Below, in pieces: positions 8,196 through 45,712 of a stretch of DNA of 64,000 nucleotides; the stretch's first letter is position 1; each line of letters opens with the position of its first letter. The stretch spans positions 18,352,001 through 18,416,000 of the forward strand of contig JBHGNT010000006.1 in NCBI GenBank assembly GCA_043228905.1. The letters are read 5' to 3'. The notes below the pieces were generated by a model. The model was not told the DNA's origin and did no database searches. It was given only the letters and a program-made list of their open reading frames with translations. Position numbers and translations under genes: made by a program. This stretch comes from Azolla caroliniana. Its lineage: Eukaryota; Plantae; Polypodiophyta.

Positions 8196-9409
8196 AACTC
8201 CCCCTTCACTCCGGCATGCGATGTCTTACTAGTCTGATCCGCTTCCGGCATGCATCCAGCTTGTCGGGTATCAGTACTTTGGTCAACATATCTGACCCAT
8301 TCTCGGCTGTGTGGATCTTCGTCAGCGCGAACTCCTGGTCATCTACTCTTTCCCAGATCCAGTGATACCTTCATTGGATATGCTTCGCCCAGGAATGGTA
8401 GGCCACATTCTTAGCAAGGTGGATGGCACTTTGACTGTCGCAATAGAGCCGGTATTCATCTTGCCTGATACCGAGCTCTCCGATGAAGTCCTTCATCCAT
8501 AATATTTCCCGGCCGGCTTCCACAGCCGCCATGTACTCCGCCTCCGTGGTTAACAACGCAACCATCTTATGCAGCCTCGACTGCCACGAAATAGCTCCCC
8601 CTGCATATGTCATTACATACCCGAATGTAGACGGGCTGGTATCCACATCAGCCGACGTTTCCGAATCAGTAAAACCATCAAGTTGAGGTTTACCGGAGCC
8701 GAATCAGAGACACATATTTGAAGTGCCCTTCAAGTACCGGAGTATCCATTTGACCGTTGTCGTGAAGAAAACCGTCCCCTGGCGCAATCGGTGAATAGCA
8801 CACATGAACCGGCCCTTCACGTGTGCGCTCTCTTAATGTATAGAATAGAGAATTAGGTATAGAGAGAGATCCTGGGTAGTTAGATTCGGTAGGTGGGAAG
8901 TAAATGAGGGAGACGGCTCCCTTCTTGATGCTATAAAGGAGAGGGAGATGCAGGGAGAGGGGATCGCGCATTAAGGAGGACGAAGTGCTATCGGACCGGA
9001 ACCGAACGTTTCTCCTCTGTCTGTTCTCTATTGTTCTTCTCTACAGGCTTCGGGAGGCTCGCGCTGCTTCGAGGAACGCCCGTGTGCTTCCGACAGCTCC
9101 TCCATCTTATCACCTTTCCGTGCGCAGACGAACAGGCATCGACATCTATTCGCCGGCCTGTTCGGTTGTAACTGCTCGCGTGTTCTGTTGTGTTCTTGTT
9201 ATTCGTTAATATACAAACAATTGTGTCTCCCTGTCTCTGTGTCCATTCGTGTTTTCTGTGTTGACGGGCCACGCCCCTGTGTTTCTTTGCTCATACGTGA
9301 CCGGGCGTCTCTCTCCTTCTTTTTCCCCTTTTATCATCTGCTCTTCGGTTCAAGACCCCGGTGGTCCCGCCTCGTTTTCCCACGCACGCGCGTAGTAACG
9401 CGACATCTT

Positions 9410-9429
9410 TGGTGAACCCGACGTGAATC
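9410..9429 (+). promoter_or_regulatory. PBS complementary to tRNA-Trp
   Basis: TGGTGAACCCGACGTGAATC is the reverse complement of the plant tRNA-Trp 3' end (...GATTCACGTCGGGTTCACCA, recalled from memory). Confidence 0.85.
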
Positions 9430-9449
9430 AGGCGGCAGAGGAGCAGAAG

Positions 9450-12400
9450 ATGAGGGGGTCAGATCTTGCAGAGGCCATGGCTTCGGCCGTGGACCGGATA
9501 GTGAGCGCGCGCGAGGGCACTGGCGCCCTCGACAGGGCTATTGAGGCGATTGTCGGTACGATCGGCCGGTTCAGTGGAAAGGATGCCACGAGTTATTTGG
9601 CGTCCTACTGGGCGGATATGTTGATGAGGGATATTCCGGAAGAGAGGCGTCTTGCCGGATTCCCTCGAGTGGTGATGTCGGGCATCCATGCGGAGGTGCT
9701 CGAGGTCCAAGCGGAGAGCCGGACCTGGGAAGAGTTCGAAGGACGGCTCCTGGAGAAGTACGGGCTGGATGACGCGCTTCGACTTTCGAAGCGGAGCTTC
9801 ATGGAATGGGTGGAGGCCCCCAAAAAAGGAAGAAATGCGTCGGTACTCCTCCGGGAGTTTGAGGAACGCTTTGCGCGCCTTTCGGCGCTCAATCGGACTG
9901 TTCTGGACACAAGTCGTGTCCTACTGTTTGTCAAATCGGTTGACACACGGGATCGGGGGCAAGTTGGCTCCTTACTGGAAACCAAAGACGGGCTGACGAC
10001 CGACTGGGCAGCGGTAAAGAGATTTTGCGGCCGTTTTGACAAACGGTGGGAGTGGGCTGATACAGAGGCGACCGGGGCGGGACCTGTCGCAGCAAGGAAG
10101 CTCAAACCGATACCGCAGGCACGAAGGGAAGAGACCCGGGAATGGCTCGAAACCAGTTCTTCTTCGACCGGCGTGATCAGAGGCTCGTCCGGGGGAACAA
10201 CTCTGGAGGAGTTGACACGAGCGGTAAAGGATCTCCAGATTGCCCAGGCTCGGAGGGAAGGCGGCGATCAGGCTCGCGACCGACGGCCTTCGGCAAGAAG
10301 TAGGTGCATGTGGTGCGACGAGGTCGGCCACATCCGGAAAGACTGCGGGGACTTTATGGAGGCTTTGAGAAGCCGGGTACTGTGCCTGTGGGAGGGTCGG
10401 GTGCACGCCAGCGATACCCGGAGGGCCCTAAACCGAAACGACGGGAGAGGAGGAATGAAAAGGCTGATGGAAGAGGCGGCAACCCGGCACGCGGAGACTG
10501 TCCACTACTCAGCGTCAGCCGGTATTCGGGTTGGGGGCAGCGAGGCCCAGAAGGAGAGCAAAGCCGAGTTCTGGCCGACGATGCTGGAAGGCCTCGCTGG
10601 TGCCCGACTGAAGAGAGACGAGGCGGACCGCGCGGAGAACCGGGTCCAGGAGGTAACCGGGTGGAGTGACCCGGTCGAAGAAAAGACGGGTTTCGTAGAA
10701 GCAGCTTGCCAGAACTACGAAGCTCTGGTTGAAGACAAACGGGTAGGTAGAAACGGAGGGGCCGGACCCTCACAGAGATAGGAAACCCGATTCGGGCCGA
10801 AACGGAACGAGGCCGGTGAGTCCAGTGCCCGGGATAACCACAAGAAGGGCAGATACCGGCTGGGCACGGAGATTGAAAGGACCACGGACCTATGAAAGGT
10901 CCTGGGAGAACGAATCCTCGACAGCAAGGTGGAACTGTCGTTGTGAGAGGTGCTCGGGATAGCCAAGAAGGAGTTCCACGACTCCATCGTGGACTTGGTG
11001 AAGAGGAAGAGGCTGTCGATGAAGGTAGAACCGGAAAGGCCGGTGGAAGTACGGACAGCGCACATAGAGGACATGGCGCTGGAAGACGAGTGGGCGGAGA
11101 GCCACTATTCGAGGCCACACTGGGCCCGAGCGACCACGGAAACCCCGGTGAAAATCGGAGATGTTCAGGAACCGGTGGTGGCACTGGTGGACCACGGTTC
11201 GGAAATAAACCTGATGTCCATGGACTTCTACAAAAAGGGGAAGATATGCGCGGCAACGCGCGCCACCGAGGAACTACACGGGGCCTGCCCAAACGTGCGA
11301 GTCAAGATCAGCGACGTCGAAATAGACCAGCACTTCTTTGTGTAGGAAACGTCCTCGCACCCGGTCATTCTAGGGGAACCGTACATTACGGCGGCACGAA
11401 TGGAGACCAAGGTGTTGGACAACGGGTCGGCGTACGCGAGGGTCAAGAGCCAGGACGGGCATCATTCGGTCCAGTTCCTGACGGTACGACCCAACCACGA
11501 GCGAAACCGCGAGTCCCTCGGTGGCGAGAACCGAGAGGATTTTTAAAGAGGGTTGCCAAGGCGTGGGGCCGCGACAGTCCGGACACTCTGGGAAAACCCC
11601 ACAAATGTACGATAGAAGTGAAACCAAAGAATCCTTGTACCATAAGTAGGAAGTTTTGTTTCTCCCACAACGGAGGGTGTACGATAGTCGGCGTCGTAGG
11701 CCAAGAAAAGACAAGGGCAGAAAGGCGACTTCGGGCGTGCGGAGTTCTTGGGCCCAGCGAAGAAATCAACGGAGCCATGGAGGCGGTCTCCTTTGATGAT
11801 ACCTTGGGAATACTGCGAGAGGTGGTCGGAGAGTGCCTTAAAGAGGACCGGATGATACCGGTTTGTTCAGAAGAGATGTATGAAGTCATCACGGACTTCA
11901 GTCGAGGGCTCGAGTTAGATCGGACGGCCCGGGTTCACACGAAGTACAAGGCTATGGACCGGAAGGTAAGGCCAGTCGCAGCACCCTTACCGGAGGACAG
12001 CGAGTTGCAAATCGAGGGGGTCGCGTCGGACCCCAGTTTACGTGATCCGGCCCGCATAGGACACACCTTCACTGACAGAACGCTACGGGAGCTCAAAATC
12101 GGTGGGGGCGGGTTCCTACTGCCGGCGGAAGAAGACCAGTTTCGGAGGATGCTCGGAAGGCACGGGAAAGCCTTCGCATTCTCGCCGGAAGAGATCGGGT
12201 GCGTAGACCCGACAGTCGTGAAGCCGATGGTGATATTGACGGTACCGCATGTACCATGGAATCTCAAGCCAATTTCGGTACCGAGAGCTCACATCCCGGA
12301 GCTGATGGAGCTATTGAGGCAGAAAGTCGATATGGGCATCCTCGAACCGTCGAGTGCCCTGTACTCGAACCGGTGGTTTACTGTACCGAAGAAGAACGGG

Positions 12401-15400
12401 ACGTTGCGCTTCATTCAAGACCTGCAGTCGGTCAACAGAGTGACCATTCGGAACGCAGGAATCGGACCAACAATAGATGAGTTCGCGGAGGCCTTCACCG
12501 GAAGGTCGATCTACTCAGTCGGTGATCTGTACTCGGGGTACGATCAGTTCCAACTAGCCGTAGAGAGCAGAGACATTACGACGATGCGGACTCCTCTCGG
12601 CCTAGTGCGGATGTGCACCCTGCCGCAAGGAGGGACAAACTCGGTGGCCCACATGGTGAATGCGATGAACAAGGTGCTAAGGGATTGTATCCCGGACATC
12701 ACCATGCCATTCTTGGACGACATCCCAATCAAGGGATGTTCGGTGGGGGAAAAGGACGAAACGATCGGACCGGACGGATGCAGGAAATTCGTGACGACAC
12801 ACATTGACGACTGCGAGAGGGTGCTGCAGAGGCTAGAGGACGTGAGGCTCACCTTCTCCGGGGAGAAATCGGCCTTCGGGCAATCAGAGATCATGGTCGT
12901 TGGACATCTATGCGGAGCGAATGGCCGGAAACCATCTCCGGCCAAGGTAGAAGTCATTTCTGCTATGAAGCCCGATTGTAACTCGGTCACGGAGGTACAG
13001 AGGTTCTTGGGAGCATGCGCGTTCTACCACATATGGATCCCACATTACGCCCACGTTGCCGAGCCACTATATGGGTTGCTGAAAAAGGGGCAAAAATTCG
13101 AGTGGCGAGTCGAGCATGCGGAGTTAGTCTGAAAAATGAAGGAGGCTCTTACTGCAGCTCCGGCGCTCCGGAAGGCGGTCTATGAGAAAGGCACCCCCAT
13201 CTACATAACGGTAGATACGAGTCCGACCGGGATCAGATGGGTCGTCAACCAAGAAGATGAGGACGGTATTCGGTTCCCAATCCGGTTCGGCGTGAAGGTC
13301 CTCAGCGAGCGACAGCGAGGATACGCCCAGGTTAAACGCGAACTCTGGGGTATCGTTTCGGCGGTAAAGGCCGATAAAGACTATCTGATCGGGACGGAGG
13401 TAATTATCGAGACGGACTGCCTGCCAATCCTCGACATGGTTTCCGGATGCGCAACTCCGGACCTGGCAATGCTCAGGTGGATAGCGTATATCAAGTCCCT
13501 AGATCCGGAAATACGACACATTTCCGGGAAGGACAATGCCATGGCCGACATGCTTTAGAGGGCCCGATTCGACGACGAGGGCGGCATGGTTTCGGAGGAC
13601 GAGGAAGTCGGCGTAGACTTCTTCGAGGCGGCTTACGTAACAACCGAAGGAAAAAGCACTCCGGCGCTTAACGATTTCAACGAGAGCAAGTACGACGGGG
13701 AGTGGCTGCAAATTGGGGGATTCTTGAGGACAATGGTGCCGGACGCATCATGGACAAGGGACGAGGCCAACCGGATCCGGAAGAAAGCGTACCGATTCTT
13801 TCTCCGAGACGGATACTTATGGAAGCACCCGAAGAAGAGGAACGACATCCCGACCCGAGTAGTGGCGACGAAGGAGGAACAGGACGAATTGTTGAAGGCC
13901 TACCACGACAGCCCTTGGGCCGGGCACCGTGGGACGTGGGCCATGTTCGAAAAGTTAAAGGGGAAGTACTGGTGGCCGGGACTGTACTAGGACGTGCATC
14001 GGTTCGTGACAACTTGTGAGAGTTGTCAGATGCACTCCATAATCCGACATCGAGACAAGCTTCACCCCACTTACCCTCCGGCCATCCACTTCAAATGGAT
14101 GGTAGATTTGGTGACGATGCCGATGGGCGTAGGGCAGATGCGGTATCTGGTGCTGGCCTGGGAGCACTCCGGCGCTTAACGATTTCGACGAGAGCAAGTA
14201 CAACGGGGAGTGGCTGCAGATTGGAGGATTCTTAAGGACGATGACGCCGGGCGCGTCATGGACAAGGGACGAGGCCAACCGGATCCGGAAGAAAGCGTAC
14301 CGATTCTTTCTCCGGGACGACTACTTGTGGAAGCACCCGAAGAAGAGAAACGGCATCCCGCACCGAGTAGTGGCGATGAAGGAGGAACAGGAGGAGTTGC
14401 TGAAAGCCTACCACGACAGCCCCTGGGCTGGACACCGTGGGACGTGGGCCACGTTCGAGAAACTAAAGGGGAAGTACTGGTGGTCGGGACTGTACCGGGA
14501 CGTGCATCGGTTCATGACAACTTGTGAAAGCTGTCAGATACACTCCATAGTCCGACATCGGGACGAGCTTCACCCCACATACCCTCCGGCCATCCACTTC
14601 AAATGGATGGTAGATTTGGTGAGGATGCTGATGGGCGTAGGGCAGATGTGATATCTGGTGCTGGCCCGGGAGGACCTGACGAACCAGGTGGAAGGCCGAG
14701 CCCTGCAGAACAAAACGACCGTGGCCGTGTGTCGGTTCCTGATCGAGGACGTGATATGCCGGTACGGATGCGTCTGAAAGATCGTGGCTGACCGCGGGGA
14801 GTTGGACGCCGAAGAGGCCAAGGAGCTGTTCAACCGGTTAGGGGTCAAGCTCTCGCTCACCACAGCGTACAATCCGGAGGCAAACGGGAAGTTAGAGCGC
14901 GGGCACAGGCCAATCGTCAAAGCGCTAGTCCGGGCGTGTGGAGGACAGGTCGGGAATTGGCCGCGACTGTTACCCTATGCCTTGTGGGCGGACCGGACAA
15001 CGCACAGTTCGGTTACCGGGTTCATGCCGTCAGAACTCATGTTCGGACAGAAGCCGATCATGCCGATGGAACGGACGATCTCCTCCTGGGCGACAGTAGA
15101 CTGGAGTGACGAAATGAGTTGGGAAGAACTGCTTGCGGCGCGTATACGGCAGCTCGAACGGAGGCCAGAGGATGTGGAATGAGCGGCGGAGAGACTTCGG
15201 ACGGCGAGAATGAAGAACAAAGCCCGGTTCGACCAAACGCACGGGCTCAGACCAAAGAGAATCGAGGAAGGTGACTGGGTGGTAGTCTACGACAGCAGCC
15301 TCCACAACCAGCACCGAGCAACACGGAAGTTTGCAAAGCGGTGGTTCGGGCCTTACGTGGTAACGGGCGCCAACGACAACGGGACGTACCACCTAGTGGA

Positions 15401-22458: not shown

Positions 22459-22536
22459 TGTCATGAACAGTACTGAGACAGAGAAGGAATTAGTACTATG
22501 AGAGGTGTGGAACTTCTTCGAGAGAAGGAAGAAGTG

Positions 22537-22570
<34 letters not shown>

Positions 22571-25500
22571 TGATGATAAGAAAGATATGTATTATATGAA
22601 GAGAATATACAATGGTGGCTAAAAGGCTTAAGACTGGCGTTGAACCAATTTGGTTCAACATAATGCCTAATGCCCTCTTTTATAGTGTTTTCAAGAGTAA
22701 TCCTGAAGCTTCTAGAATGTTCCAGAGAAATCTGGAATATACACTAATTTCCTATAATAAAATATAAATGAAAATAATATCCTACATATTACAATAGATG
22801 ATCTAATGGTCAAGAGCTCGACTCATATAACCTAAGGTCATGGGTTGGAGTCTTGCCATATCATGACACTATCCCCCCTTTAAAAAGACGAGTGTCACGA
22901 GTCGTCTTAGATTGAGGACCTGGTTTGTGTGGATATTGACGATGGAAGTCTTCAAGAAGAGCACGACCATTGGTCACATTCTCGATCGGTTCCCGAGTAC
23001 GTTCGTTGGGGCTATAGCCTAGCCAATCGACTAGATAGTAGAGCTTGTTGCGAACAATCTTCGAAGCAAGGATGGCAGCAACCTCGTACTCCGGCCCATC
23101 TTCAAGCTTGATCGGGGGTGGAGGTTGGATAAGACGTCTTGGGATGGTGCTCTCGTGGTAGGGTTCGAGGAGAGAACTATGAAACACCGGATGTATCCGA
23201 AGTTGAGGAGGTAGATCGAGACGAAAAGCGACATCATTAATCTGTCCAATAATACGGAAAGGACCTAATCGCCGATAATCTAACTTCTCACATGGACGAG
23301 TAGTCTTGATGTGTCGTCGTAGCAGCCACACCCGATCTCCAATATTAAAATTGGATGGAAGTCGATGACGATCCGCGTAGACCTTGTGTGTTTGTTGAGC
23401 TTGCTGGAGATGAGTAGATAAATCCGCTTGTATCTTCCGTAACTGCTCCAAACGATCCTCTGCGCACGGATTTGTGGACACCTCTGGGGTTTCAAGTACA
23501 CTCCACCGGAGGTCACATCCCGTATAAGCATAAAATGGCGTAACTTTAGTGGATGCGTGGATAGAGTTGTTATAGGAAAATTCGGCAAAGTGGAGAATAT
23601 CTGCCCAGTCATCTTGATGATAGCTGAGAAAGCACTACAGATACTGCTCCAACATTTGATTTGTTCGTTCAGCTTGGCCGTCGTTTTGTGGGTGGTAGCC
23701 GGAGGAGAGGTTACAAGTGACCTTGAGCATGTTAAAAAGGTGCTTCCAGAATTTTGACACGAACTGGGGTCCACGGTCACTGATGATACTATTGGGAAGT
23801 CCATGATGCCGACATACTTCACACATGACAATTTCGGCAGTGTCTTCACTGGAGATCTCCTTAGTACATGGCAAGAAATGAGCCATCTTCGTATATCGAT
23901 CGACCACCGTTAGAATCGCATTGAACACCTTAGAGACTGGAAGATCTGTGATGAAGTCTAGAGCAATGGATTGCCACGGCTTGCTTGGAATTCGTAATGG
24001 TTCTAATAAACCATATGAATAATGCCTTGGCATTTTCGCTCTACAACATGTATCACAAGTCCCAACAAAATCCTCGACAAATTGTCGCATACAGGGCCAC
24101 CAGAATGTTCGTTGTACTAAATGTAATGTTTTAGTACTACCAAAATGCCCAGCTGTATATGTGTCATGAGAGTTTTGTACTACTCGAAGGCGGCAAGAAC
24201 CATTAGGAACATACAAAAGTTCTTTAAAGAAGAGTAATCCATCATGGTATTTGAATTGCCGATAGTCTGTACCTGGTGGTTGCGACTGTGAACACGATGC
24301 TCGAGAGGGATCAATTTGTGCTAGTATAGCTTGGGCGAACGCATCTGTCTTCAAGTCTTCACGTATGGTATCGATAACGCGGGAATCCATAGGCATGTCA
24401 AAGATCTGTGTTGCTTGTAGTCGTGCCGGTCCCAAGATGACTTGTTTTTGGTTATCGAAAGTTGGCTCGCCGGGACGGGGTGCTAGATACGAACGCCGTG
24501 ATAATGCATCTGCCTTCCCTTGGTGCCTCCCCGGGCGATATGTAATTTTGAAGTCGAAACGCGTGAGGAAGTGGGCCCACCGAGCTTGACGTCGATTCAA
24601 CACACGAGCATCCTGAAAGTAGGCAAGATTCTTGTGGTCACTAAATACGGTGACTGGATGAGAGGATCCCTCCCGAAAATGCCTCCATTGCATAAAAGAA
24701 TCCACTATTGCCAATAGCTCCTTATCATGAATTTCGTAGTGGATTTCAGCGGCGTCAAACTTGCGTGAGTGAAAAGCCACAGGATGTAGCTTCTCATCAT
24801 TCCCCTGTTGTAACAGAATGCTCCCCAATGCAAAATCCGATGCGTCAGCTTCGATAATGAATGGTTTTTCCGGATCGACATGAGCTAGAATTGGAGCTGA
24901 TGTAAATGCCTTTTTAAGACTCTCGAAAGCCATGTCCGTTTCTTCAGACCAGATGAACGGTTGTCCCTTCCTGGTAAGTTGTGTGAGAGGTAGAACGATC
25001 TTTGAGTAATCTTGTATGAACTTCCGGTAAAAATTGGCAAAGCCTAAGAAGCATTGCACATCCCGCACCGAACGCGGAGTCTGCCATTCTACCACCGTTT
25101 TGACCTTAGCTGGGTCCATGGAGATGCCTTCTGACGAAATGATGTAGCCGAGAAATTCCACTTGGTTGCACCCAAAACTACATTTTTCCAACTTTGCATA
25201 CAGACCATGTTCTCGAAGTCGTTTTAGTACTAATAGTACATGAGAATCATGTTCTTCTTGGGTCTTTGAATAAACCAGTAGATCATCCAAATAGATGATC
25301 AAACAATCATCCAATAGATCCCGGAATATATCATTAGCCATGTGTTGGAAGACTGTCGGCGCATTAGTGAGGTCGAATGGCATGACCGTATACTCGAAGT
25401 GCCCATATCTGGTGCGAAACGTAGTCTTCCATTCATCTCCTAGTCAGATCCGTACGAGGTTATATGCTCCCCGTAAGTCGATCTTCATGAAGAACCTGGC

Positions 25501-27789
25501 ACCATTGATCCGTTCTAAAAGACTTGAGATAAGGGGAAGAGCATACCTATTCCTGATTGTAACCTTATTCAAGCCACGGTAATCTACAACGAGACGAAGC
25601 GATCCATCTTTTTTTTTTACGAAGAAAATGGGCGCGCCGGCTGGAGATTTCGAATGCCGAATGAAACCATTTTCCAAATTCTCCTCTATATAGGCCCGAA
25701 GGACTTCCAGCTCGGTTGGTGACAAATTGTAGATCGGTCCCCATGGCGGCTCTTTTCCCGGTTGTAAATCGATGGGGCAATCGTACGGTCGATGATGAGG
25801 AAGTGTGTTGGCTTGTACTTTATCGAAGACATCGGCGTAATGACAATACTTCTCGGGAAGTTGAACGGTGGATTCTTCTTTAGTGGTGCTGGAGGGGTTT
25901 ACTGATATTGCAAAGAGGAACATTTCCTCCTTGCGCCCTTCTTTATGCAACTGACGTAGCAAAATGGTTACCATCTTCTGAGTTGACCCTTGGGTTTGTC
26001 GACACCGGATTTCTCTTGTTCTCCAATCTATGTCTGGGTTATGTAACTCGAACCACAGTAATCCTAAAACTATAGGATGTTCTGGGATACTAATAATATT
26101 AAATGATACTACACATGCTAAGTTATCTAGGACAATATTAATGGGCTCTGACTCTTCTATGATATTTCTGGAAGTAATGGGACGTCCATCAATGACTACT
26201 ACAGAGGCTGGACACTGGAGTTTTCTTAGGGATATCTTATGAGCTTGAGCAAATTTCTTATCCATAAAGCAAGAGTTAGCTCCGGAATCTAGGAGTGCTA
26301 GGACATGTGCTGGAGGGGTACATAGTACTAACTATTACTTGGGCTACGAACACATCACTAACTTGCTTAGAGGGAATGGAACCACTAATGGGCTGCACAG
26401 ATCTAGGGTTGTCCAACCAAACGGCTCCTATTTTGGCTGGACTTAGTCATTTAACTCTTCTTCTAACTGACTAAGGACATCAAATTTGTTTGCTAGATCT
26501 GGGATATTAGTACTATTAGGACTATCAGATATCCCTACTGAAATAGGCTCGGATTTAGTACAATTAGAACTAGCGACTATTTGGTTTACCTGTCTTCTTG
26601 GCCTATGGGGGCAATTTATTGCGATATGTCCTAGTCCACCGTAGTAAAGACATAGTCGATTTGTAGTAAAGACATAGTCGATTTGTACGGCGTCGTTGCT
26701 TTTCTTCTTCGGATAATGGCCCTCGACGACATGTAGTGCCAATCGCCATCAGAGTCGGAGTATTCGCTGGAGGCACATTATATGACTCCTTCAAAAAAGG
26801 TCTTGCTACCACTGAGGCGTAGGTGGGCTCTGATCTTGCCCTCGGCATCTGTAGATGTCGTTCCGAACGTCGCTCAAAGAGGCGGTTGTCACATCTCACC
26901 GCGCGACTGATTGCTTCTGTTAAGGACTTTGGCTCTTCGGGGAAGGTCAATAGTAAATCCTTGACGTCATTGCGTAAACCATAACGGAATTGCTCCATCA
27001 ACGCTTGATCATCCCAAGGGATATCGGCGGCGAGTAGGCGAAAATCTGCAGCGTATGCGGAGGCTGGACGGTCACCTTGGCGTAATCGCCGGATTTTGTT
27101 GATTGCGGTCCTAATGCTGTCAGTATCTCCGAAACATGCTTTAAACTCACCTAGAAACTCTTCAAAATTGTTGAGTAACGGAGATTCCTTTTCTAATAGT
27201 GGAGCGAACCATGAAAACGCTAAGCCACTTAACAAAGTGCCTACTAAACCCACTCGTGATGCATCGGTGGGATATCGGGAAGGATGCATTTGAATAACTA
27301 ATCGTACCTGGTTAAGGAACCCTCTAAACTGCGATCGCGTTCCATCGAACTTCGTGGGAAGGCCAATCTTGGGTTCTTTATTAATCCCTTGTGTTCTGGG
27401 CCCTTGTTGTTGCATCGCTACGATGGTTGCTTCGAGTTGTTGCACGCATAACGCAAGTTCCCCATGTTGTTGTTGCGTTTGCTGCTTTTCTAAGGAGATT
27501 TGTTGAAGATCCCCCAGCAACCGTTGGTTTTCTTGTTCCAAAGCATGGAACTTCTCCTTCAAGCATTGAAATTCCGAGCAAACAAATTGATATTCTTCAG
27601 TGGTAACAGTGGCGATGGGATGAAAGAAAAGAGGAATAAAAGATTAGTAGGAAATGAGAGAGACAGAAGGTAGGGGAAATTGGTTCAAACTGTCATGAAC
27701 AATACTAAGACAGAGAAGGAATTAGTACTAAACGAAGGATTAGTACTATGAGAGGTGTGGAACTTCTTCGAGAGAAGGAAGAAGTGAGC

Positions 27790-27837
<48 letters not shown>

Positions 27838-28132
27838 TGATAAGAAAGATATGTATTATATGAAGAGAATATACAATGGTGGCTAAAAGGCTTAAGACTG
27901 GCGTTGAACCAATTTGGTTCAACATAATGCCTAGTGCCCTCTTTTATAGTGTTTTCAGGAGTAATCCTGAAGCTTCTAGAATGTTCCAGAGAAATCTGGA
28001 ATATACACTAATTTCCTATAATAAAATGTAAATGAAAATAATATTCTACATATTACAATAGATGATCTAATGGTGAAGAGCTCGACCCATATAACCTAAG
28101 GTCATGGGTTCGAGTCTTGCCATATCATGACA
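22459..28132 (-). mobile_element. G3: full-length chromovirus (Ty3/Gypsy, Tcn1-like)
   Basis: LTRs 22459-22868 and 27691-28132 with TGTCATGA...TCATGACA termini; TSD TAATG on both sides; G-run PPT next to 22869; gag 26603-27562, PR 'LLDSGANSCF' (~26290), RT 'KIDLRGAYNLVRI...YLDD', RH 'EADASDFALG', IN, chromodomain. Confidence 0.97.
22861..27562 (-). pseudogene. G3 gag and pol with C-terminal chromodomain (a few stops/frameshifts)
   Basis: ORFs 26603-27562, 25444-26265, 23635-25383, 22861-23481; chromodomain 'EYEVAAILASKIVRNKLYYLVDWLGYSPNERTREP'; a 22-bp duplication at 26641-26684 frameshifts the Gag knuckle. Confidence 0.93.
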
Positions 28133-30883: not shown

Positions 30884-32024
30884 CTAGAGGAGAAGGGCAT
30901 AGTAAGATACGCCCAAAAGTGTAGTAGCCAAAAGCAGAGATGGCGTCAGAGTAGCACCCCATGATTGGCCCAACGAATTGTCCACAGGAGCTGTCTGCAA
31001 GGATGGAGTGGGCGGTGGTGCCGACGTACCCATTGAGGTGGTCGTGGCTATGGCACACAATAGCAAAACATTTTGAAAACGTTCAGAATTTATTCCATGG
31101 AAAATAATACATACATACACTAATTATTAACCTGTTTCCCCAAAGTGCCATGATTCATTCCAACATTGCTGCTCATTACGAGCTACGATTAATTAGTATT
31201 TGGCACATTCCCACATTATTAAGTAGGGGCTTCCATCATTGGAATTTGGTGGGAAATCCATTGTCTATATCCATACAAATACAATACAACGCAATGCAAA
31301 TGTATATATGGTTCCTATATTTATGTATACTTACAGTTTGTGGTAGATTTAGGCGGGAAGATCTTAGCTTCAGGAGATCCAGGTGGGAGGTTTAATAGAT
31401 CTACAAAACCATCCATCGAGTATAGATAAGCAGAAAGCTAGAAATAGGATGCCATTTGATTTGTGCAACATACAAAAGTTAGAAGAAGAAGAAGAAGAAG
31501 AAGAGGAGGAGGAGGAGGATTGGGGACTATTGAAATGGTGTTTCATTATATCAATTTCATTTGATGTAGTAGATTAAAAAGGAATCCACTAATGATGAGT
31601 TTGAAATTGAAACAATTTAACAAAAAAAAATGCATTTACCTGGGCATTTACTGGGGTCAGTGTTGATGTTGCACGCTGGTCCGAGGGTCATGGTTAAGGT
31701 CAAGTTAAGGTTGGGCAGGCGCGAGTTGTTCTGGGACGAGGCGAGGATGAGGTCGCAAAGGCATTGGGGCTTCTGGAGGTGGATGGGCAAGAGATTGGTA
31801 CAACATTCTTTGGAAGGTAGCTTCGCCTGGCCCTGGACGTACGCGAGACATGGCACGAGCGAAGGTATGAGGGCATCGCAGTTGCTCGTGTCCGTGGCCG
31901 GCCCAGCCGAAGAAGCCCCAATGACCCTCCTAGGCCCTAGGGTCATTAACACGATGGTCGCCACGACCATTAGGTTCCCAATGTGATGGCACGTCCTAAT
32001 TCCATTGGTAAGCTTACGATCCAT
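30884..32024 (-). CDS. LTPG: GPI-anchored non-specific lipid-transfer protein (type G), 3 exons: 32024-31640, 31400-31335, 31047-30884; 204 aa
   Basis: Hydrophobic signal 'LMVVATIVLMTLG', 8-Cys motif C-x9-C-x14-CC-x12-CLC-x26-C-x8-C, GT-AG introns both phase 1, exon 2 'DLLNLPPGSPEAKIF' typical of LTPGs, S/T/P-rich linker and hydrophobic tail 'PSLLLATTLLGVSYYALLL'. Spliced length 615 nt is in frame. Start ATG is uncertain. Confidence 0.92.
31481..31520. repeat. (GAA)n(GAG)n microsatellite in LTPG intron 1
   Basis: AGAAGAAGAAGAAGAAG...GAGGAGGAGGAG. Confidence 0.9.
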
Positions 32025-32476
32025 TACAACAAACAAGTGTGTAGGTACTAGGTAGCACTTCCCTTCTTCCCTTGGTGACACCACCACTACCCCACACTAG
32101 GGCCAATATCTAAACTAGGGTCAATATCAAAGCAAGCACCTAGAAGAAGACCTAGCAACTCCCTCTCAATCACCTCCTCCTCCTCTTGCTGCTATTATTT
32201 GCACTTAATCAGTTTCCAAAACCCATGCATGTATATATGTTTTGTTTGTATGTAGTGCACACCTCTTTGTTGTCTTTGGTTTTTTTTATCCATTTCCATT
32301 GTTTCTTTATTGCTTCCTTCCCTCCAATCAGCCATTAATTATGAGGGGTAGTAGCTCAACAAAGCCCTTCGGTGACCCCCACCCCCCCCCCCCCCCCTTC
32401 AATTAATTCCCTTCTTTTTCTCACCAACAACTACTCTTAAGAGTCTTTAGTTGTGCTAGCTACAAATAAGAGGTAC

Positions 32477-37643: not shown

Positions 37644-37832
37644 CTTGCTGAAACCACAAGACGAAAATGAGAGTACACCAAAAATTTTAACGTGGAAAAC
37701 CCAAAATAGGGAAAAACCACGGGAACCGTAGGTTCCAAACAACTTCACTATAATTTTGAGTACAATGGAATACGACCTCACTAGAGGACTGTATCTACCT
37801 CAAGGGAATGGCCTTGGCTACAACCTTCATCC

Positions 37833-38727
37833 AATCAGGTGGATAGAATAACACAAATTACAAACTGAGTACAACCTCTCTAGGTTTTGATTAGAGGAAC
37901 GTACCTCAAGGCAACAACCTTGGCTACACAAAAACGAATATAACTGAGTACGAACTTTCTAGGTTTTGACTAGAGAGAATGTACTAGCCTCAAGGCAACA
38001 ACCTTGGCTACAATCGGGTGGATAGAATAACACAAATTACAAATTGAGTACAACCTCTCTAGGTTTTGACTAGAGGAACGTACCTCAAGGCAACAGCCTT
38101 GGCTACACAATAACGAATATAACTGAGTACAAACTTTCTAGGTTTTGACTAGAGAGAATGTACTAGCCTCAAGGCAACAACCTTGGCTACAATCGGGTGG
38201 ATAGAATAACACAAATTACAAATTGAGTACAACCTCCCTAGGTTTTGACTAGAGGAACGTACCTCAAGGCAACAGCCTTGGCTACACAATAACGAATATA
38301 ACTGAGTACGAACTTTCTAGGTTTTGACTAGAGAGAATGTACTAGCCTCAAGGCAACAACCTTGGCTACAATCGGGTGGATAGAATAACACAAATTACAA
38401 ATTGAGTACAACCTCTCTAGGTTTTGACTAGAGGAACGTACCTCAAGGCAACAGCCTTGGCTACACAATAACGAATATAACTGAGTACAAACTTTCTAGG
38501 TTTTGACTAGAGAGAATGTACTAGCCTCAAGGCAACAACCTTGGCTACAATCGGGTGGATAGAATAACACAAATTACAAATTGAGTACAACCTCTCTAGG
38601 TTTTGACTAGAGGAATGTACCTCAAGGCAACAGCCTTGGCTACACAATAACGAATATAACTGAGTACAAACTTTCTAGGTTTTGACTAGAGAGAATGTAC
38701 TAGCCTCAAGGCAACAACCTTGGCTAC
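37833..38727. repeat. 5 x 179-bp tandem array (79+100-bp related subunits) inside the C4 LTR
   Basis: AATC(A/G)GGTGGATAGAATAACAC at 37833, 38012, 38191, 38370, 38549; near-identical units; degenerate subunits flank on both sides (~37757-38880). Confidence 0.97.
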
Positions 38728-40251
38728 AATCTTCACTTGATCGGGTGGATACAACAATGACAAGCACAAGAAATGTGGTAGCCTCAAGGCAACAACCTTG
38801 GCTACGATCCTCACCCAATTGGTTGGATAAACCAACAAGCAAATAAACTTACAATTCTTCACCCAACTGGGTGGATAGAAAAACAAGCAAAATAGGAAAC
38901 AAGAAAACAACACAAAACGAAGGAACCTGAAGCGAGTAGGCAGGAGAGGTGTTGTACAATCGCGGTTCTCTGTCAGCATGACCAACACCTCACAAGTCTC
39001 TGTCTCCACTTTGGTAGAATGCTCCTCCTCTTGTTCTCCCTCTTTCGTTTTTTGTTTTCTTCTCTATTTTATGTTTTTCTCTCTGTTTTCTGTTTTTGCT
39101 CTGTGTACGTAGAAAAATCTGATCCCGTTATGTTTCCTCATTCTCCTTTTTATGTTTCTCTCCTTGTTGTCCAACATCTATGTACCTGTGTTCACACACA
39201 CACACACAAAAGACACACACCAAAAAACATACAAAAGAAAAAGGGTACACACACACACACACATGTATATATAAATATAATAATAGATAATTATAACTTT
39301 TCTCCTTTTTGGCCCTAAACCAATTCGGCGCTCAACGACTCCCAATCGGCTGAGCAATGCTCAACCGACTCTCGATCGGCCCTTCGGCTCTTAGCCAACT
39401 CCATGTTGTGGGCTCCACTTGAGTGGATAGGCCCAACATTCTCCCCCTCCATCTCAAGTGGGGGGCATAACTAGGTTTGCCTTTCGTTTGCAAACTTCAA
39501 GCTTCTCAAAAGCTTTCTATTTGTCTCCTGTCTAAGAACATCACATAATCATGTGAAGATCATCTTCATCTCATAGACCCTCTTCCACCTACTGTGGAGA
39601 TGCTGAAACATCATCTACCTAGTCACCTATGATATGATGATCATGATCCTATCCACCATCATCATCAATTGCATGATCAGCCGTATCATCATACTCCTAC
39701 GCATCTCCCCCGTGACCTTGGGTGTCTAGGGACAGGAGTTGGACATTTGGTGACTAAAAAACAAGGGGTGAAATTTGGCATTTCATTCAGCTCCTCAAGG
39801 AATACCACATCCCTGTTTCTAATGACCTTCTTCTCTAAGTCATATAGTCTATGGCCGGATTCCTCATGGCCGTATCCTAGAAAATATGCATGGTGTACAT
39901 TAGGCTTGGATCTTTCATCTTTAGGACGTGAACACGGGTCCTACAACCGAACACTCTCAAGTGTTTGTATGGCACCTCCTAATTTGTCCACACCCTCTCG
40001 GGTACATCATCATCTTAGAAAAAAGACTAATGGAGACAGATTCATGAGGTCAACTGCAGTCCTCATTGTTTCACTCCAAAAGGGTTTAGACAATTTTGAG
40101 TGTGATAGTATATATCTTATCTACTCACAAATTGTCCTACTCATCTTCTCAGCCACACCATTGTGCTGAGGTGTTTTCTGAACACTCCTCTCAAGACTAA
40201 TACCACGCACACAACCATATTGCCCAAATTGTCCGCCCATGTTTGGCGCCA

Positions 40252-41343
40252 TTATTCACGCACATACATTTCAGCTTGCATTAGGTAGAGAGAATTCTGT
40301 TTTTGACAGCTTGCTATTAGGGAATCTTTGGTGAGTTTCCATCTTCCTTCACCAAAGTAATTTTCATATCCCTCATCATCAAGCTTACCGGTAGAGATGA
40401 TATTCAACGGAATATCTGGTACATGCCTTACATCCCTCAATATGAGTTTACTACCCGTATCAGAGACTAAGACTACATCCCCTAGGCCAACGGCCTCTGT
40501 CATACCGTGATTAGCCATTTTGACTTTACCAAAGTCACCACCGGTATCTAACTCAAACATTTCCCCATATGGGGTGATGTGATACGAGGCTCCCGAGTCA
40601 ATGACCCAATCAATTTGTTGACATGCTAAACTATTACAAGCATCATCACAGACAATAATAACATCGCCATCACATGTGGCGGTTATAGGGTCATTTTTCT
40701 TGTCGTTATTGGTTCCATTCTTTTGGTCCCTCTTCTTCTTCCTACAATCTCTTTCGTAGTGATTTGGACCACCACAATAACGACATGAGAAATCTTTCTT
40801 GAAGTCTTTCCTACTTCTAGATTTTGACCTCCCCTCAACATTATTTCTATGATCTTGTGGACCCCGAGTGTGGCTTCTTCCTCTATTGGGGTTGTTTTCT
40901 ATGACCAAGGCTTCATGCTCATTGTTGGACTCATGCTCCTTTCGTCGTGCTTCTTCATGTAGAAGAATCGACTTAAGCGTGTCCAATGTTAGCTCCTTTT
41001 GTTGTGTTGCAGTCCCACGCATCTCAACAAGGGTTTCCCAACTATATGGGAGAGAGCCTAACAATAACAAAGTCAACACCTCATTTGCTAGAGGTATTTC
41101 TAATGAGAGTGTTTGACTTATAAGTCCTTGAAACGTGTTTAGATGCTTTGCCATACTAGAGCCATCTTGATATCTAAGTCTTACAAGTTTCCTAAACACG
41201 GAGACTCTATGTAAGGCATTTTTTATCTGAAACATAGTTTCAAATTTCCCCCATAACTCGTGTGCTTTGGTTTCATCAACAAAATTGTTATATAGACTCA
41301 TGTCTATAAAACAACGTATGTATGATGTTGTTTTTAGATGCAT
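40252..41343 (-). pseudogene. C4 gag-protease fragment
   Basis: 'CRYCGGPNHYERDC' knuckle, 'WVIDSGASYH' protease; the preceding gag codons (EA) lie at 45288-45297 beyond G4. Confidence 0.9.
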
Positions 41344-41345
41344 TG

Positions 41346-44300
41346 TGAAAGGGTGTATAAGATAATAGATAGTTATACACTATATGAGGGCTTGACCAAA
41401 CCGATTAGATGGAGTTGAAAATCATAATATATTATATAGCTCTAGGTAATTATGATTAGAGAGTATAACTCAAGAAACTAAGAAAAAAGATAGAGAAAGC
41501 GAGCAAGAAATAAGAATGTTCTGATATTCCAACATCAAGAGAATACAAAGGAGACAAACTCCACATTGAACTAAAACCAAAGACCTTCCTCTTCTAAGAC
41601 ACTTCCTCTTCCACAAAGACACTTCTTCCTAACACTCCTCATCCACTCTTTGGCCTTCACTCTTCGCCCTATCCTCCCTAATATCACTTCTTCTTTTATA
41701 ACCTTCCTCTTCTTATCCACGTTCATGCTATTTTTAGAAGCTTTTTATCTCCCTATTTTTAGCTATGACACATCGACCTTCTAATCGTCATATCTCCCTC
41801 ATCCGATATCCAAATTAAGCGATTTAAAAAGCTATAGAAAGCTCTTTTTACAAGCTTTCTAATCCATATTTAAACGTGATATTTGGATAAACAACGAGGG
41901 AGTTATGACCATTCTATTTTTACTGTTTTTTATAGTCTGCGTTTTCTCTTTTTACTTTTCTCTTTGTCTCGTACTTTTACTTTTGACTTCTTCCCTAAGG
42001 TCTTAGTTCGTGTTCTTATCCTCAAAATGTGAATTATCCATACTTTATATCCATCTAGTGTTCAATGGTTTGAATTCAAAAAACACTTTCACATTTAGCT
42101 CCCCCCCCCCCCCTTGCTTGTTGAGCGAACCATTTATGGTGAGCCGAAGATAAAAAGAATAAAAAAAACTCCTTCGCCTTATGGTAGGCTATAGACAAAG
42201 AAGGAGAGAAGAAAAAGAAACAAACTATGTGAGTAAAACCCCCGCTAGTCGGTAGGAAAAACCTCACACTCCTAGACACACCCACACACACATTGACAAT
42301 TCCATCATCATCTTTCTCCTTGTCAACACAAAGAAAGAGGTTACCACAATCATTATGTCTTCGTTAACTCTCCAAAGACTAGTAGGGCCATGGGATACAT
42401 CACTCTTGATAGCAGTAAGCATGTCAACATATAAATGAATCTTTCGAGCGAGCGCACCTTTTGCACAAATACTTTCAAAGCTTCAAGACTTGTCGGAATT
42501 GTCATCTTTGTAATTATGTTAATCTTTGAATCATCCACATGAAATCCTTTTTGGCACAACATATTGTCCACACTACCTTGTTTTGTATAAACAACCATTT
42601 TATCGACAATCTCATCTCGAGAAGGAAGTGAAAATTCATCTCGTTTGGTCGAATCATTCAAGGGTTTGAAATTGATCTCATTCTTCTTTGGAACCAAAAC
42701 TATAGGTGACACACACCTCAAATCTTCCATCTTATAATTGGAACTTTCTTGTAACCATGCGTTGAACTCTTGCATAAATTCTTCCTTTTGTTCAACACTC
42801 AATTGCCGAAGCTTTGGGGAAATTGATACACTTTCCTTCAAGTTGATGTGGTATTTGTTGCAAGCTTCTCCTCTTATTCCAAAACACTTGATGAACACAT
42901 CCTCCACTATGCTTGTGCAATGCACCACTCCACTATCTACTACAACCACCCTTGTTGAAGATGACCTACTAATAGGAATTCCTACTTTGTTTACTACAAA
43001 TTCAGAAATCAAGCTTACCCTAGCACCACTATCACCCAAGGCATCTTTGATGTGAACCCCTTTGATGGAGACAGGGGTGATTGGACTTATGTCCTTTCGA
43101 TCTTCTACTCGCATGATCCCCACGTAATGCACGGTCTTTTGACTTTGGCAAATACTCACAAGCCTCCCCCACTCATTTTGTAATGTGGATGATAATTGGA
43201 GAAGTTGCGGCCATGTTATCCTTGGTCCACTCGATATCAATTCATGCTTCCGATTGAAAGATTCTACACCTTCTCCCATAGGAATATCCTCCATCTTTAT
43301 CTTCCTTCTAGAGTGTCTCCTTCTCAATTTGTCCTCTTTCTCATTCTCCTTAGACTTCTTCTTTTGTCTTGAGTCACTAGATTCTCCTTCAACTTCTTTC
43401 TCCTTTTGCGAGGCTCTTGTCCTTTTCACAAGAGCTACTTCACAAGCACTATCACTATCATCAATAAAATTAAGAAGATTCACATTATGAGGAATTGTAG
43501 GAACCTGAGTCATTGGAAGTGTTATGGATTCGCCTCCTTCGACTCCATTGTTGATAGGTCGTTGTCCATTCCGTTGCACTTCATACATGTCTCTTTCCAT
43601 ACCTCTTTGTTGTCGATGAGGACATCTTGTTGAGTGTCCCTCCTCTTGACAAGAATAACAAATTACACCTTGATGCCCTCTAGAGCCACCACCATCGGGA
43701 ATAGTGTTGCGAATTGCTTGGGATTGTTGCAAGTGGGCCATCACTTCATCAAAGCGCCGATTCACCAACGCCATTGTATCTTGTTCACTCTTCACTTGTT
43801 CCACTTCTTGAGATATACTTGTTGGGTTTATTGTTGTGGTGGTATACACATTTGGAAACACTTGTCCACCATGCACAATTGAAGATAAGGCTTGAAAGTT
43901 GGCACGAGGCATCAAATTTGCACCCAAAGCCGTCATTTGGGGATCCCCCATGGAACTCATCATCTTCACTTGTCGATCATAATCTTGACAAACTTGGAGA
44001 AGAGCTTGAAAAGTCGTTGGATCCTTCAAGCTTGCCTCTAAACGGAAATGCATATCAAGGCCCACCTTAAATTGTTCTATCTTAAACCACTCGTCTTCGG
44101 TGCCACCACGAAGACGAATCCACGTCGTCCACAATTCTTGGAAATTTCGTTCATACTCTAAAAAACCAAAAGGTGATTCCATCTTTAGTTGAAAAAGCTC
44201 CTCCCTTACCTCAGTTGCACTTTTCCATTGAATATATCTTGTACGAAATTGATGCACCAATAATTGATATTCTCCTTGTTCATTTTGCGGAAGAGAGTCA

Positions 44301-45287
44301 TACCAATCTCGAGCACGACCATAGAATGTAGCTACCAACAAGGGCAACTTTTCGTTGTCGGTGATGCGTCCAATAGATATGGCATGATGCTCAAAGCATG
44401 CCAAAAAGGCACCAGCATCTTGTGTTCTTTCACCCGAAAATGCAAATTGCATAGCTAAGTTAATGTAATATAGTAACACAATTAAATGATAACTTCTCTT
44501 CCTATACGGAAAGGATCGGCCCTCCCTGGAGCGCCAAAATGAAAGGGTGTATAAGATAATAGATAGTTATACACTATATGAGGGCTTGACCAAACCGATT
44601 AGATGGAGTTGAAAATCATAATATATTATATAGCTCTAGGTAATTATGATTAGAGAGTATAACTCAAGAAACTAAGAAAAAAGATAGAGAAAGCGAGCAA
44701 GAAATAAGAATGTTCTGATATTCCAACATCAAGAGAATACAAAGGAGACAAACTCCACATTGAACTAAAACCAAAGACCTTCCTCTTCTAAGACACTTCC
44801 TCTTCCACAAAGACACTTCTTCCTAACACTCCTCATCCACTCTTTGGCCTTCACTCTTCGCCCTATCCTCCCTAATATCACTTCTTCTTTTATAACCTTC
44901 CTCTTCTTATCCACGTTCATGCTATTTTTAGAAGCTTTTTATCTCCCTATTTTTAGCTATGACACATCGACCTTCTAATCGTCATATCTCCCTCATCCGA
45001 TATCCAAATTAAGCGATTTAAAAAGCTATAGAAAGCTCTTTTTACAAGCTTTCTAATCCATATTTAAACGTGATATTTGGATAAACAACGAGGGAGTTAT
45101 GACCATTCTATTTTTACTGTTTTTTATAGTCTGCGTTTTCTCTTTTTACTTTTCTCTTGGTCTCGTACTTTTACTTTTGACTTCTTCCCTAAGGTCTTAG
45201 TTCGTGTTCTTATCCTCAAAATGTGAATTATCCATACTTTATATCCATCTAGTGTTCAATGGTTTGAATTCAAAAAACACTTTCACA
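41346..45287 (-). mobile_element. G4: young 3.9-kb non-autonomous Ty3/Gypsy-type LTR element
   Basis: 748-bp LTRs 41346-42093 and 44540-45287 (one mismatch seen), TSD CATTG, PBS (minus) TGGCGCTCCAGGGAGGG, poly-G PPT at 42094-42120, single long ORF. Confidence 0.96.
42353..44452 (-). CDS. G4 Gag-protease-truncated-RT polyprotein (~699 aa from first ATG), intact frame
   Basis: Gag 'FSGERTQDAGAFLACFE...GRARDWYDSL', knuckle-like 'CYSCQEEGHSTRC', PR 'LGDSGARVSLI', RT relics 'VSPIVLVPKKN', 'INFKPLNDSTKRDEFSLP', 'GFHVDDSKINII..M..PTSLEAL..F'; no YxDD, RNase H or integrase. Confidence 0.88.
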   Translation of the reverse strand: MQFAFSGERTQDAGAFLACFEHHAISIGRITDNEKLPLLVATFYGRARDWYDSLPQNEQGEYQLLVHQFRTRYIQWKSATEVREELFQLKMESPFGFLEYERNFQELWTTWIRLRGGTEDEWFKIEQFKVGLDMHFRLEASLKDPTTFQALLQVCQDYDRQVKMMSSMGDPQMTALGANLMPRANFQALSSIVHGGQVFPNVYTTTTINPTSISQEVEQVKSEQDTMALVNRRFDEVMAHLQQSQAIRNTIPDGGGSRGHQGVICYSCQEEGHSTRCPHRQQRGMERDMYEVQRNGQRPINNGVEGGESITLPMTQVPTIPHNVNLLNFIDDSDSACEVALVKRTRASQKEKEVEGESSDSRQKKKSKENEKEDKLRRRHSRRKIKMEDIPMGEGVESFNRKHELISSGPRITWPQLLQLSSTLQNEWGRLVSICQSQKTVHYVGIMRVEDRKDISPITPVSIKGVHIKDALGDSGARVSLISEFVVNKVGIPISRSSSTRVVVVDSGVVHCTSIVEDVFIKCFGIRGEACNKYHINLKESVSISPKLRQLSVEQKEEFMQEFNAWLQESSNYKMEDLRCVSPIVLVPKKNEINFKPLNDSTKRDEFSLPSRDEIVDKMVVYTKQGSVDNMLCQKGFHVDDSKINIITKMTIPTSLEALKVFVQKVRSLERFIYMLTCLLLSRVMYPMALLVFGELTKT

Positions 45288-45712
45288 CATTGCTTCCTGT
45301 AAAAGAATACGTGTGCGGAAGCGTATGCGTAAGACACTGAGTACACAGTTCGGAATTACGACAGTTCGATAAAACACAGAAATCACAAAGACGGAGAGGG
45401 AGAGACACAGAGAGAGAGAGAGAGAGAGTAGAAAATGTAACTATATTCAGAAACAATTCTCTGTATGTTCTCTATACATATTTGGTGCTCAGTGAGCACC
45501 TTTTATACAGGCCCTGACTATTGGGTTGACACAAGTACTTACAGTACCTGACTGCTCATAAATGAGCATCCTACGCTTACCCCCAAAATTATTCCTTACG
45601 AGGAATAACATTCTAATGGCCTCTCGGTTTACATACCGCTACGGTCATATTTTGCGCACAGTTTTACGCACCCAGTCTACGCACTGGGTTATGCACCCGT
45701 TTCACTCCCCCT

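Follow-up and report, generated by a model that had tools for sequence, protein, structure and literature searches.

The 64,000-nucleotide stretch of Azolla caroliniana DNA analysed here (contig JBHGNT010000006.1, positions 18,352,001 to 18,416,000; hereafter the window) carries on its minus strand, at 41346-45287, a 3942-bp long terminal repeat (LTR) retrotransposon with a single open reading frame (ORF) of 699 amino acids (aa; ATG at 44452, stop at 42353). The ORF encodes Gag, part of a protease, a relic of reverse transcriptase (RT) and a C-terminal tail of 37 residues derived from the RT thumb. The tail is under purifying selection and the RT relic upstream of it is not. No enzyme is whole in the element, the protease included, and the element belongs to a repeated, old Ty3/gypsy non-autonomous family. 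It probably supplies Gag itself and depends on a helper for protease, RT and integrase, with the tail probably serving as a binding helix.

Selection was estimated as the ratio of replacement to silent substitution rates (dN/dS) with our own GY94 codon-model fit, pairwise and on trees. In the following, L numbers denote metagenome contig loci and P numbers denote proteins from protein searches; pairwise silent divergence is saturated against helper family B (L009) and for the Gag of L013, and those pairs were left unused. The tail (aa 663-699) has a dN/dS of 0.20 on a tree of six sequences (p 4e-7) and of 0.12 for the window copy with three high-coverage loci (p 5e-8); another codon-frequency model changes little (0.19). 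The boundary at residue 663 is the deletion junction of L013 and was not fitted. The constraint is strongest in aa 663-675, the part closest to the helper thumb (dN/dS 0.03). The remainder, aa 676-699, is shared by no helper and shows values of 0.19 on four sequences (p 7e-4) and 0.31 on six (p 0.0035), and the window copy and L001 differ there by six silent and no replacement changes. Sliding dN/dS over 30 codons from residue 575 to the end runs 0.72, 0.94, 1.08, 0.43, 0.24, 0.12 and 0.20. In five sequences, the variable sites at the three codon positions number 5/9/19 in the tail and 17/13/17 in aa 620-662. Where the tail has fallen out of the Gag frame (L005 and L011), dN/dS is 0.68 vs. 0.21 for the others (p 0.035, one extra L011 codon being dropped from the alignment), which is what selection on the fused peptide would produce.

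The RT relic ahead of the tail (aa 526-662) is a neutrally drifting in-frame linker. For aa 526-619, dN/dS is 1.18 between the window copy and L001, and 1.03 and 1.19 on trees of three and four sequences that exclude L004, L022 and L005, the start of RT being helper-like in these three; for aa 575-619 it is 0.91 on a tree of all eight sequences that reach there, and for aa 620-662 it is 0.82 on five (p 0.54). All nine relic indels in five loci are multiples of three, and non-triplet indels occur only in L005 (two of four) and L011 (one of three); L013 was misaligned in this DNA census, and its in-frame status is taken from its open ORF. The first-pass annotation had noted that the RT deletions preserve the frame, and the comparison of loci bears this out for the shared indels. 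It had also proposed that the RT stub as a whole is retained by selection, which does not hold: dN/dS is 0.8-1.2 over aa 526-662 and 0.12-0.20 over aa 663-699. Three of the four RT islands it quoted and most of the fourth lie in the neutral part, and the selected last 37 residues had not been singled out. The fold prediction it suggested for this region gave no predicted fold for aa 526-662, with an AlphaFold2 confidence (predicted local distance difference test, pLDDT) under 50 over most of these residues. Further upstream, the capsid region (aa 1-165) has a dN/dS of 0.21 against L001 (p 5e-4) and 0.13 against L002, which fits an element making its own Gag, and the comparison with L001 gives 0.35 for the Gag linker and 0.69, not different from 1, for aa 386-525.

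In alignments, the tail matches the helices of the thumb in both the helper and Ty3 RT, with five additional hydrophobic residues. AlphaFold2, on a nine-sequence alignment, predicts a helix over the C-terminal 43 residues (pLDDT ~50-70). Twenty-three of 36 tail positions are invariant, many of them polar, and the Kyte-Doolittle 19-mer value of the tails is 1.4-1.85. The tyrosine at the Ty3 Y298 position, a primer contact (PMC5371799), is serine in six of six aligned tails, the Ty3 numbering carrying an offset of two derived from the alignment. The tail pattern occurs in 28 of the 74 proteins collected and is C-terminal in 26, a set drawn from protein searches and so biased towards open frames. 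A tail profile run against 1.84 billion representatives matched seven proteins, all of the element family by sequence. The best ESM Atlas matches to P0001 619-698 are unnamed clusters (0.93-0.94), which serve as leads only. The tail is fused in frame to three Gag types, including the partial Gag of L014/P0053.

The features of the element, in window coordinates, are as follows.

41341..41345, no strand: left copy of the target site duplication (TSD), CATTG, read from the sequence
41346..42093, minus strand: 3' LTR, 748 bp; LTR positions 86-748 are identical to helper L002 at 651 of 662 sites
42099..42115, minus strand: polypurine tract (PPT), at the same position in both autonomous families
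42227..42269, minus strand: block of the 3' untranslated region (UTR) with a predicted hairpin, candidate cis signal, common to both autonomous families
42311..42339, minus strand: short predicted hairpin directly after the stop codon, kept among non-autonomous subfamilies
42353..44452, minus strand: ORF of 699 aa with Gag, partial protease, RT relic and tail
42356..42466, minus strand: tail, aa 663-699, RT-thumb-derived hydrophobic helix with a five-residue insertion, under purifying selection
42467..42595, minus strand: RT relic aa 620-662, spanning the junction of the palm deletion and the first part of the thumb, neutral (dN/dS 0.82, p 0.54)
42596..42877, minus strand: RT relic aa 526-619, fingers islands, neutral (dN/dS 1.03-1.19), with the Ty3 RT match
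42878..43075, minus strand: aspartic protease, N-terminal part with DSG at aa 474-476; the C-terminal part is lost in the deletion at 42878/42877
43622..43660, minus strand: zinc knuckle, one residue short in the window copy
43931..44452, minus strand: Gag capsid domain, aa 1-174 (Pfam PF03732, PF19259), under purifying selection
44520..44536, minus strand: primer binding site (PBS), identical in both autonomous families
44540..45287, minus strand: 5' LTR, 748 bp
45288..45292, no strand: right copy of the TSD, CATTG, read from the sequence

Examination of the element ends confirmed the anatomy given by the first-pass annotation: 748-bp LTRs with one difference, a clean CATTG duplication at both ends, a PBS and a PPT in place, and an uninterrupted ORF of about 700 codons. 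The PBS (44536-44520, TGGCGCTCCAGGGAGGG) starts three bases past the 5' LTR and presumably corresponds to a tRNA-Arg end. The LTRs, TG...CA on the element strand, have a single mismatch over 748 sites (41965 T / 45159 G). With the rate quoted in PMC4350172, 1.3e-8 per site per year, this one difference corresponds to an age of ~51,000 years (95% range 1,000-290,000 years), and freely chosen slower rates extend it up to ~0.3 million years; the insertion is recent. No second copy of the element occurs within the 64-kb window. The stop codon lies 260 nt ahead of the 3' LTR vs. 262 nt in both helpers, and the 46 bases after it are conserved, with nine variable columns. The 42227-42269 block is nearly identical across both helper families and the parasites, with a predicted hairpin of little covariation, and is a candidate packaging or strand-transfer signal; a search of the element against Rfam gave no match up to E 1. 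The zinc knuckle reads C-x2-C-x4-H-x3-C, one residue short, in the window copy and is also short in P0013. The spacing is complete in other copies, and contigs from four of four runs have three extra bases at 43633.

In a Pfam scan of the ORF, Retrotrans_gag passed the cut-off, the protease was matched in part and no RT family appeared up to E 1; a search of the PDB matched residues 533-618 to Ty3 RT (4OL8, E 0.001). Alignment to the intact relative L002/P0026 showed that the RT islands are collinear with it, in the order originally described. Relative to it, the fingers lack five residues, 119 palm residues including CDGYSG and FMDD are replaced by 10 (a net loss of 109), and RNase H, the second RNase H (aRH), integrase and all else past the thumb are absent. 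The palm motifs, RNase H and integrase are thus gone as first stated, although the catalytic motif of this family is FxDD rather than the YxDD given there. Compared with L002, a stretch of 148 helper residues is also missing, running from the C-terminal protease region with its LGRPW motif to the RT start, and the ORF is therefore without a complete protease; of the Gag-protease ORF first described, the Gag stands and the protease is cut short. Splicing was considered as the origin of the deletions and has little in its favour: by eye, a 47-codon protease deletion known from related copies has a GTAAGC repeat on both sides, which fits template switching, and no clean GT-AG pair was evident at the other junctions. 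This in-frame mid-protease deletion (P0007, L003, L020, L004, L005 and L022) is common to full-length family A copies and one tail-bearing subfamily. It therefore seems that a full-length form with a defective protease has spread and donated its 5' half.

A search for longer relatives returned two proteins, P0007 and P0008, among 3891 candidates, and their clusters contain several members of 1719-1730 aa. In the helpers P0026 and P0008, Pfam recognized Gag, protease, RT, RNase H, a second RNase H and integrase, with PF13456 between RNase H and integrase. Two families were distinguished, each with one ORF: family A (L002) has an intact ORF of 1722 codons, and that of family B (L009) has 1730 aa. 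The element LTR is identical to that of L002 at 651 of 662 sites (98%; 92% in the first 277 bp), whereas the family B LTR is ~80% alike over 370 bp. The 17-nt PBS is identical in L002, L008 and L009. An autonomous family with the same PBS and LTR ends, anticipated in the first-pass annotation, thus exists. The helper ORF is intact on a high-coverage contig. Family A is likely the helper, and we infer from these sequence matches that it would mobilise the element in trans. The metagenome scan confirmed at least 26 loci among at least 594 pattern matches; among the 26 loci listed, nine have the RT palm, seven have the tail and 10 have neither.

The first protein search recovered six proteins among 4162 candidates. 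The same product of 698 or 699 aa is encoded on three further contigs (P0001, P0012 and P0013), and P0002 and L001 carry all the junctions of the window copy at ~80% protein and ~90% DNA identity. The RT junctions recur in several subfamilies, as expected of a family rather than a one-off deletion. An exact 252-base piece over the palm junction reached depths of 760 and 1864 in two runs, in which other listed pieces reached ~16-29 and 38-200. Tens of copies would be a rough reading, depth not being a copy number. All 30 bins were covered at 80% likeness by runs labelled as three organisms. Leaf and plant metagenomes are among the sources with matching sequence. Of four runs presumed to be RNA, one is probably DNA, the one carrying the same species label yielded four contigs, each less than 90% alike, and another spans Gag-protease and the 3' UTR but hardly touches the relic; these runs argue neither for nor against expression. 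One subfamily combines the A-type Gag with the junctions of the window copy, and another combines the A-type Gag with the different, 47-codon protease deletion (L004, L022, P0015). A third carries a B-like Gag, with either the full relic (P0006) or ~109 further codons removed in frame and the tail kept (L013, P0005); over the other subfamilies, the further relic deletions amount to 17, 38+13 or ~109 codons. In a fourth, the Gag is of a third type, partial and lacking both the zinc knuckle and the protease site (L014, P0053-P0058, P0060-P0062, P0064). The tail has been exchanged among subfamilies (P0058). The Gag-protease DNA of the window copy is 82-96% identical to family A, whereas the RT islands are only 59-72% identical; as protein, the islands share 47-61% with either helper, and helpers A and B share 72-96% with each other. 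Thus, the 3' module is older than the Gag and LTR ahead of it, an age difference for which we infer repeated recombination as the cause.

Proteins of the L014 type (L014:2730-4508 and P0053-P0058, P0060-P0062, P0064) consist only of the C-terminal portion of a distant capsid, a middle region that is acidic and has no Pfam match, and the tail. Judged from this composition, such a protein could not build a particle alone. The capsid fragment recalls the p22 restriction fragment of Ty1.

In the proposed mechanism, the RNA would be transcribed from the helper-like LTR and translated into the Gag-relic-tail protein, which would co-assemble with helper Gag-Pol; the RNA would then be packaged, and the helper enzymes would copy and integrate the element. 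The relic between protease and tail would be a passenger that needs only its frame. The lineage would persist by recombining a fresh LTR and Gag from the current helper onto the old 3' module. A specific binding helix is favoured for the tail because the tightest constraint falls on polar thumb-like residues and because the tail survives changes of Gag. With a chance a little short of even, the tail may mimic the surface of the helper thumb and so hook Gag to the helper Pol or the assembling particle; such a hook would work whichever Gag stands in front. A bolder version, tentative and rather doubtful, is that of a portable 37-residue thumb-derived hook that could be fused to any captured Gag, down to a fragment from the capsid C-terminus, and would grab or throttle the helper Pol. 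The tail would then be an exapted RT fragment defining the trans-acting parasite module of a long-lived lineage.

Several observations weigh against the binding-helix reading. The relaxation of the disconnected tails is marginal, neither locus being significant on its own (p 0.21 and 0.13), and six sequences give no significant third-position bias in the tail (9/11/19, p 0.12). In two of the seven tail-bearing loci (L005 and L011) the tail is out of frame, and their assembler coverage of 15.9 and 24.6, vs. ~2-5 for other contigs, means that tail-less forms may have multiplied too. Pairs with L004 or L022 show low dN/dS in aa 526-619 (0.18-0.27), which we put down to recently recombined helper RT. 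The sample is small, with six in-frame tails for which there is DNA; the loci are collapsed metagenome contigs and may be chimeric; and recombination violates the assumption of a single tree. The conserved 46 bases after the stop place RNA-level constraint near the tail, and the hydrophobicity of the tail leaves room for a role at the membrane.

These last two points lead to alternatives for the tail itself. The frame may be kept so that translation ends near the 3' LTR and nonsense-mediated decay is avoided, with the tail conserved by RNA constraint or exchange. The position of the stop codon, almost the same as in both helpers, the conserved UTR after it and the tails swapped among subfamilies agree with this proposal, and PMC5580714 proposes that plant transcripts in which a long 3' UTR follows a Gag-only ORF would be prone to decay. 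Decay avoidance explains the in-frame indels of the neutral part and may act alongside a binding helix. However, it predicts no amino-acid deficit, whereas aa 676-699 show silent differences only between the window copy and L001; covariation contributes unfavourably (+0.95) to the consensus RNA fold across the tail, and disconnected tails relax. As the explanation of the tail it is improbable. We give a similarly low chance to a C-terminal membrane anchor tying Gag to a membrane site of assembly or transport. The tail does hold the most hydrophobic 19-mer of the protein (1.85, the next being 1.44, and 1.0-1.1 in the helper thumb), its hydrophobic stretch stops five residues before the C-terminus with an amphipathic stretch ahead, and it is predicted to be helical. 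However, one or two arginines lie in the core, several subfamilies reach only 1.4-1.5, and the strongest constraint is on the polar stretch 663-675.

Hydrophobic C-termini attract quality control, and the hydrophobic end on an otherwise unfolded relic could make the tail a degron that clears Gag fusion left unassembled, so that it stays with its own RNA and the helper is spared. A generic degron needs no such set of invariant positions, many of them polar, and we regard this as very improbable. Equally far-fetched is the decoy proposed in the first-pass annotation, in which the whole minimised RT would be selected to dimerise with, recruit or inhibit the helper Pol. It draws on the shared, in-frame junctions and on the precedent of Ty3 RT, which acts as a substrate-induced asymmetric homodimer (PMC5371799). 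However, aa 526-662 evolve neutrally, other subfamilies delete yet more relic codons, and there is no confident fold (mean pLDDT 39.6 with nine sequences, weak evidence). Of the two arginines of the Ty3 dimer interface, R203 has its position deleted, and at the R140 position the helper has E and the relics have K, D or E. The decoy is thus largely refuted for aa 526-662, and a role in recruiting or inhibiting Pol is possible for the tail only.

Comparisons with known systems showed that the element would work like known Gag-keeping parasites and falls outside the strict TR-GAG and Gag-Pro groups. Like TR-GAG elements (Chaparro et al. 2015, PMC4350172), it is shorter than 4 kb (3942 bp), has LTRs, PBS, PPT and TSD and one Gag ORF, lacks working enzymes, and is repeated and young. 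However, its ORF is not Gag-only and runs on through a cut protease, the RT relic and the selected tail, and its autonomous partner is in hand, whereas for TR-GAG1 no such partner was found. BARE-2, cited at first as a Gag-only element, lacks Gag according to the same source. Wheat RLG_Quinta (PMC11302176) likewise derives from Gypsy elements, is old and non-autonomous, keeps its Gag ORF intact and its PBS and LTR ends conserved, shows recombination in the gag region and carries an extra piece (DUF1) after Gag. DUF1 is given no known origin in the text available, whereas the extra piece of the element is traced to the RT thumb with its selection mapped. RLG_Cereba (PMC11302176) belongs to the centromeric CR-domain lineage, whereas the helper here has a second RNase H.

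RLG_Sabrina_SA and RLG_WHAM (with RLG_Wilma; PMC9744471) have a Gag-protease ORF without RT or integrase and a varied 5' coding content. Their Gag-Pro ORF is called intact, whereas the element has lost the 148 residues with LGRPW and its constant part is the 3' RT-derived tail. In the terms that paper uses for autonomous and non-autonomous pairs, the element and its helper have similar PBSs and conserved LTR ends and promoter region. Among 115 sugar-beet families (bioRxiv 10.64898/2026.03.01.708851), 15 keep decayed pieces of RT, RNase H, integrase or chromodomain, eight of them with GAG/PROT, and modular recombination is common, as in the element family. However, these remnants are treated as decay, and no selected RT-derived peptide is reported in the part of that preprint available. 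The helpers resemble the Tat clade Ogre/Retand (Neumann et al. 2019, PMC6317226) in the order RT, RNase H, aRH, integrase, the 5-bp TSD and a transfer RNA-type PBS; the second RNase H is present in the helpers P0026 and P0008 and lost in the element. Unlike Ogre/Retand, with extra ORFs, large non-coding regions and split ORFs, L002 and L009 are compact, and one ORF fills the internal region with no extra ORF or split. No report of a selected RT-thumb tail was found in the literature searched, outside which lay most subscription journals and supplements, such as the sugar-beet tables.

The results bear on the way in which non-autonomous LTR elements that keep Gag bring helper enzymes into their particles. 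Pol remnants of such elements are usually filed as decay, and the codon-level test used here separates decay (137 residues) from a 37-residue piece kept through deletions and Gag swaps. Both the peptide, which is short and well delimited, and the helper polyprotein lend themselves to tests of binding, localisation and stability, and other families regarded as decayed may merit scanning for selected tails.

The element sits inside the gag of a broken Copia element (40252-41345 and 45293-45700). Its left flank is itself a repeat, and a TG-starting, AG-repeat sequence, perhaps a second insertion, begins at 45298, five bases past the right TSD. The pol regions of the other elements in the window are split by stops, in agreement with the original description. 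A chromodomain Ty3/gypsy element at 22459-28132 has LTRs ~90-93% alike and in-frame stops in pol. A Ty3/gypsy-like element at 9399-14675, with an RT match at 10877-13132 and a duplicated 508-bp stretch at 13655-14675, is adjoined by a Copia element on the other strand. An exon of a plant lipid-transfer protein gene lies amid nested retroelements at 31617-32096 (minus strand), and a tandem array of five 179-bp units with 98% matches occupies 37780-38731.

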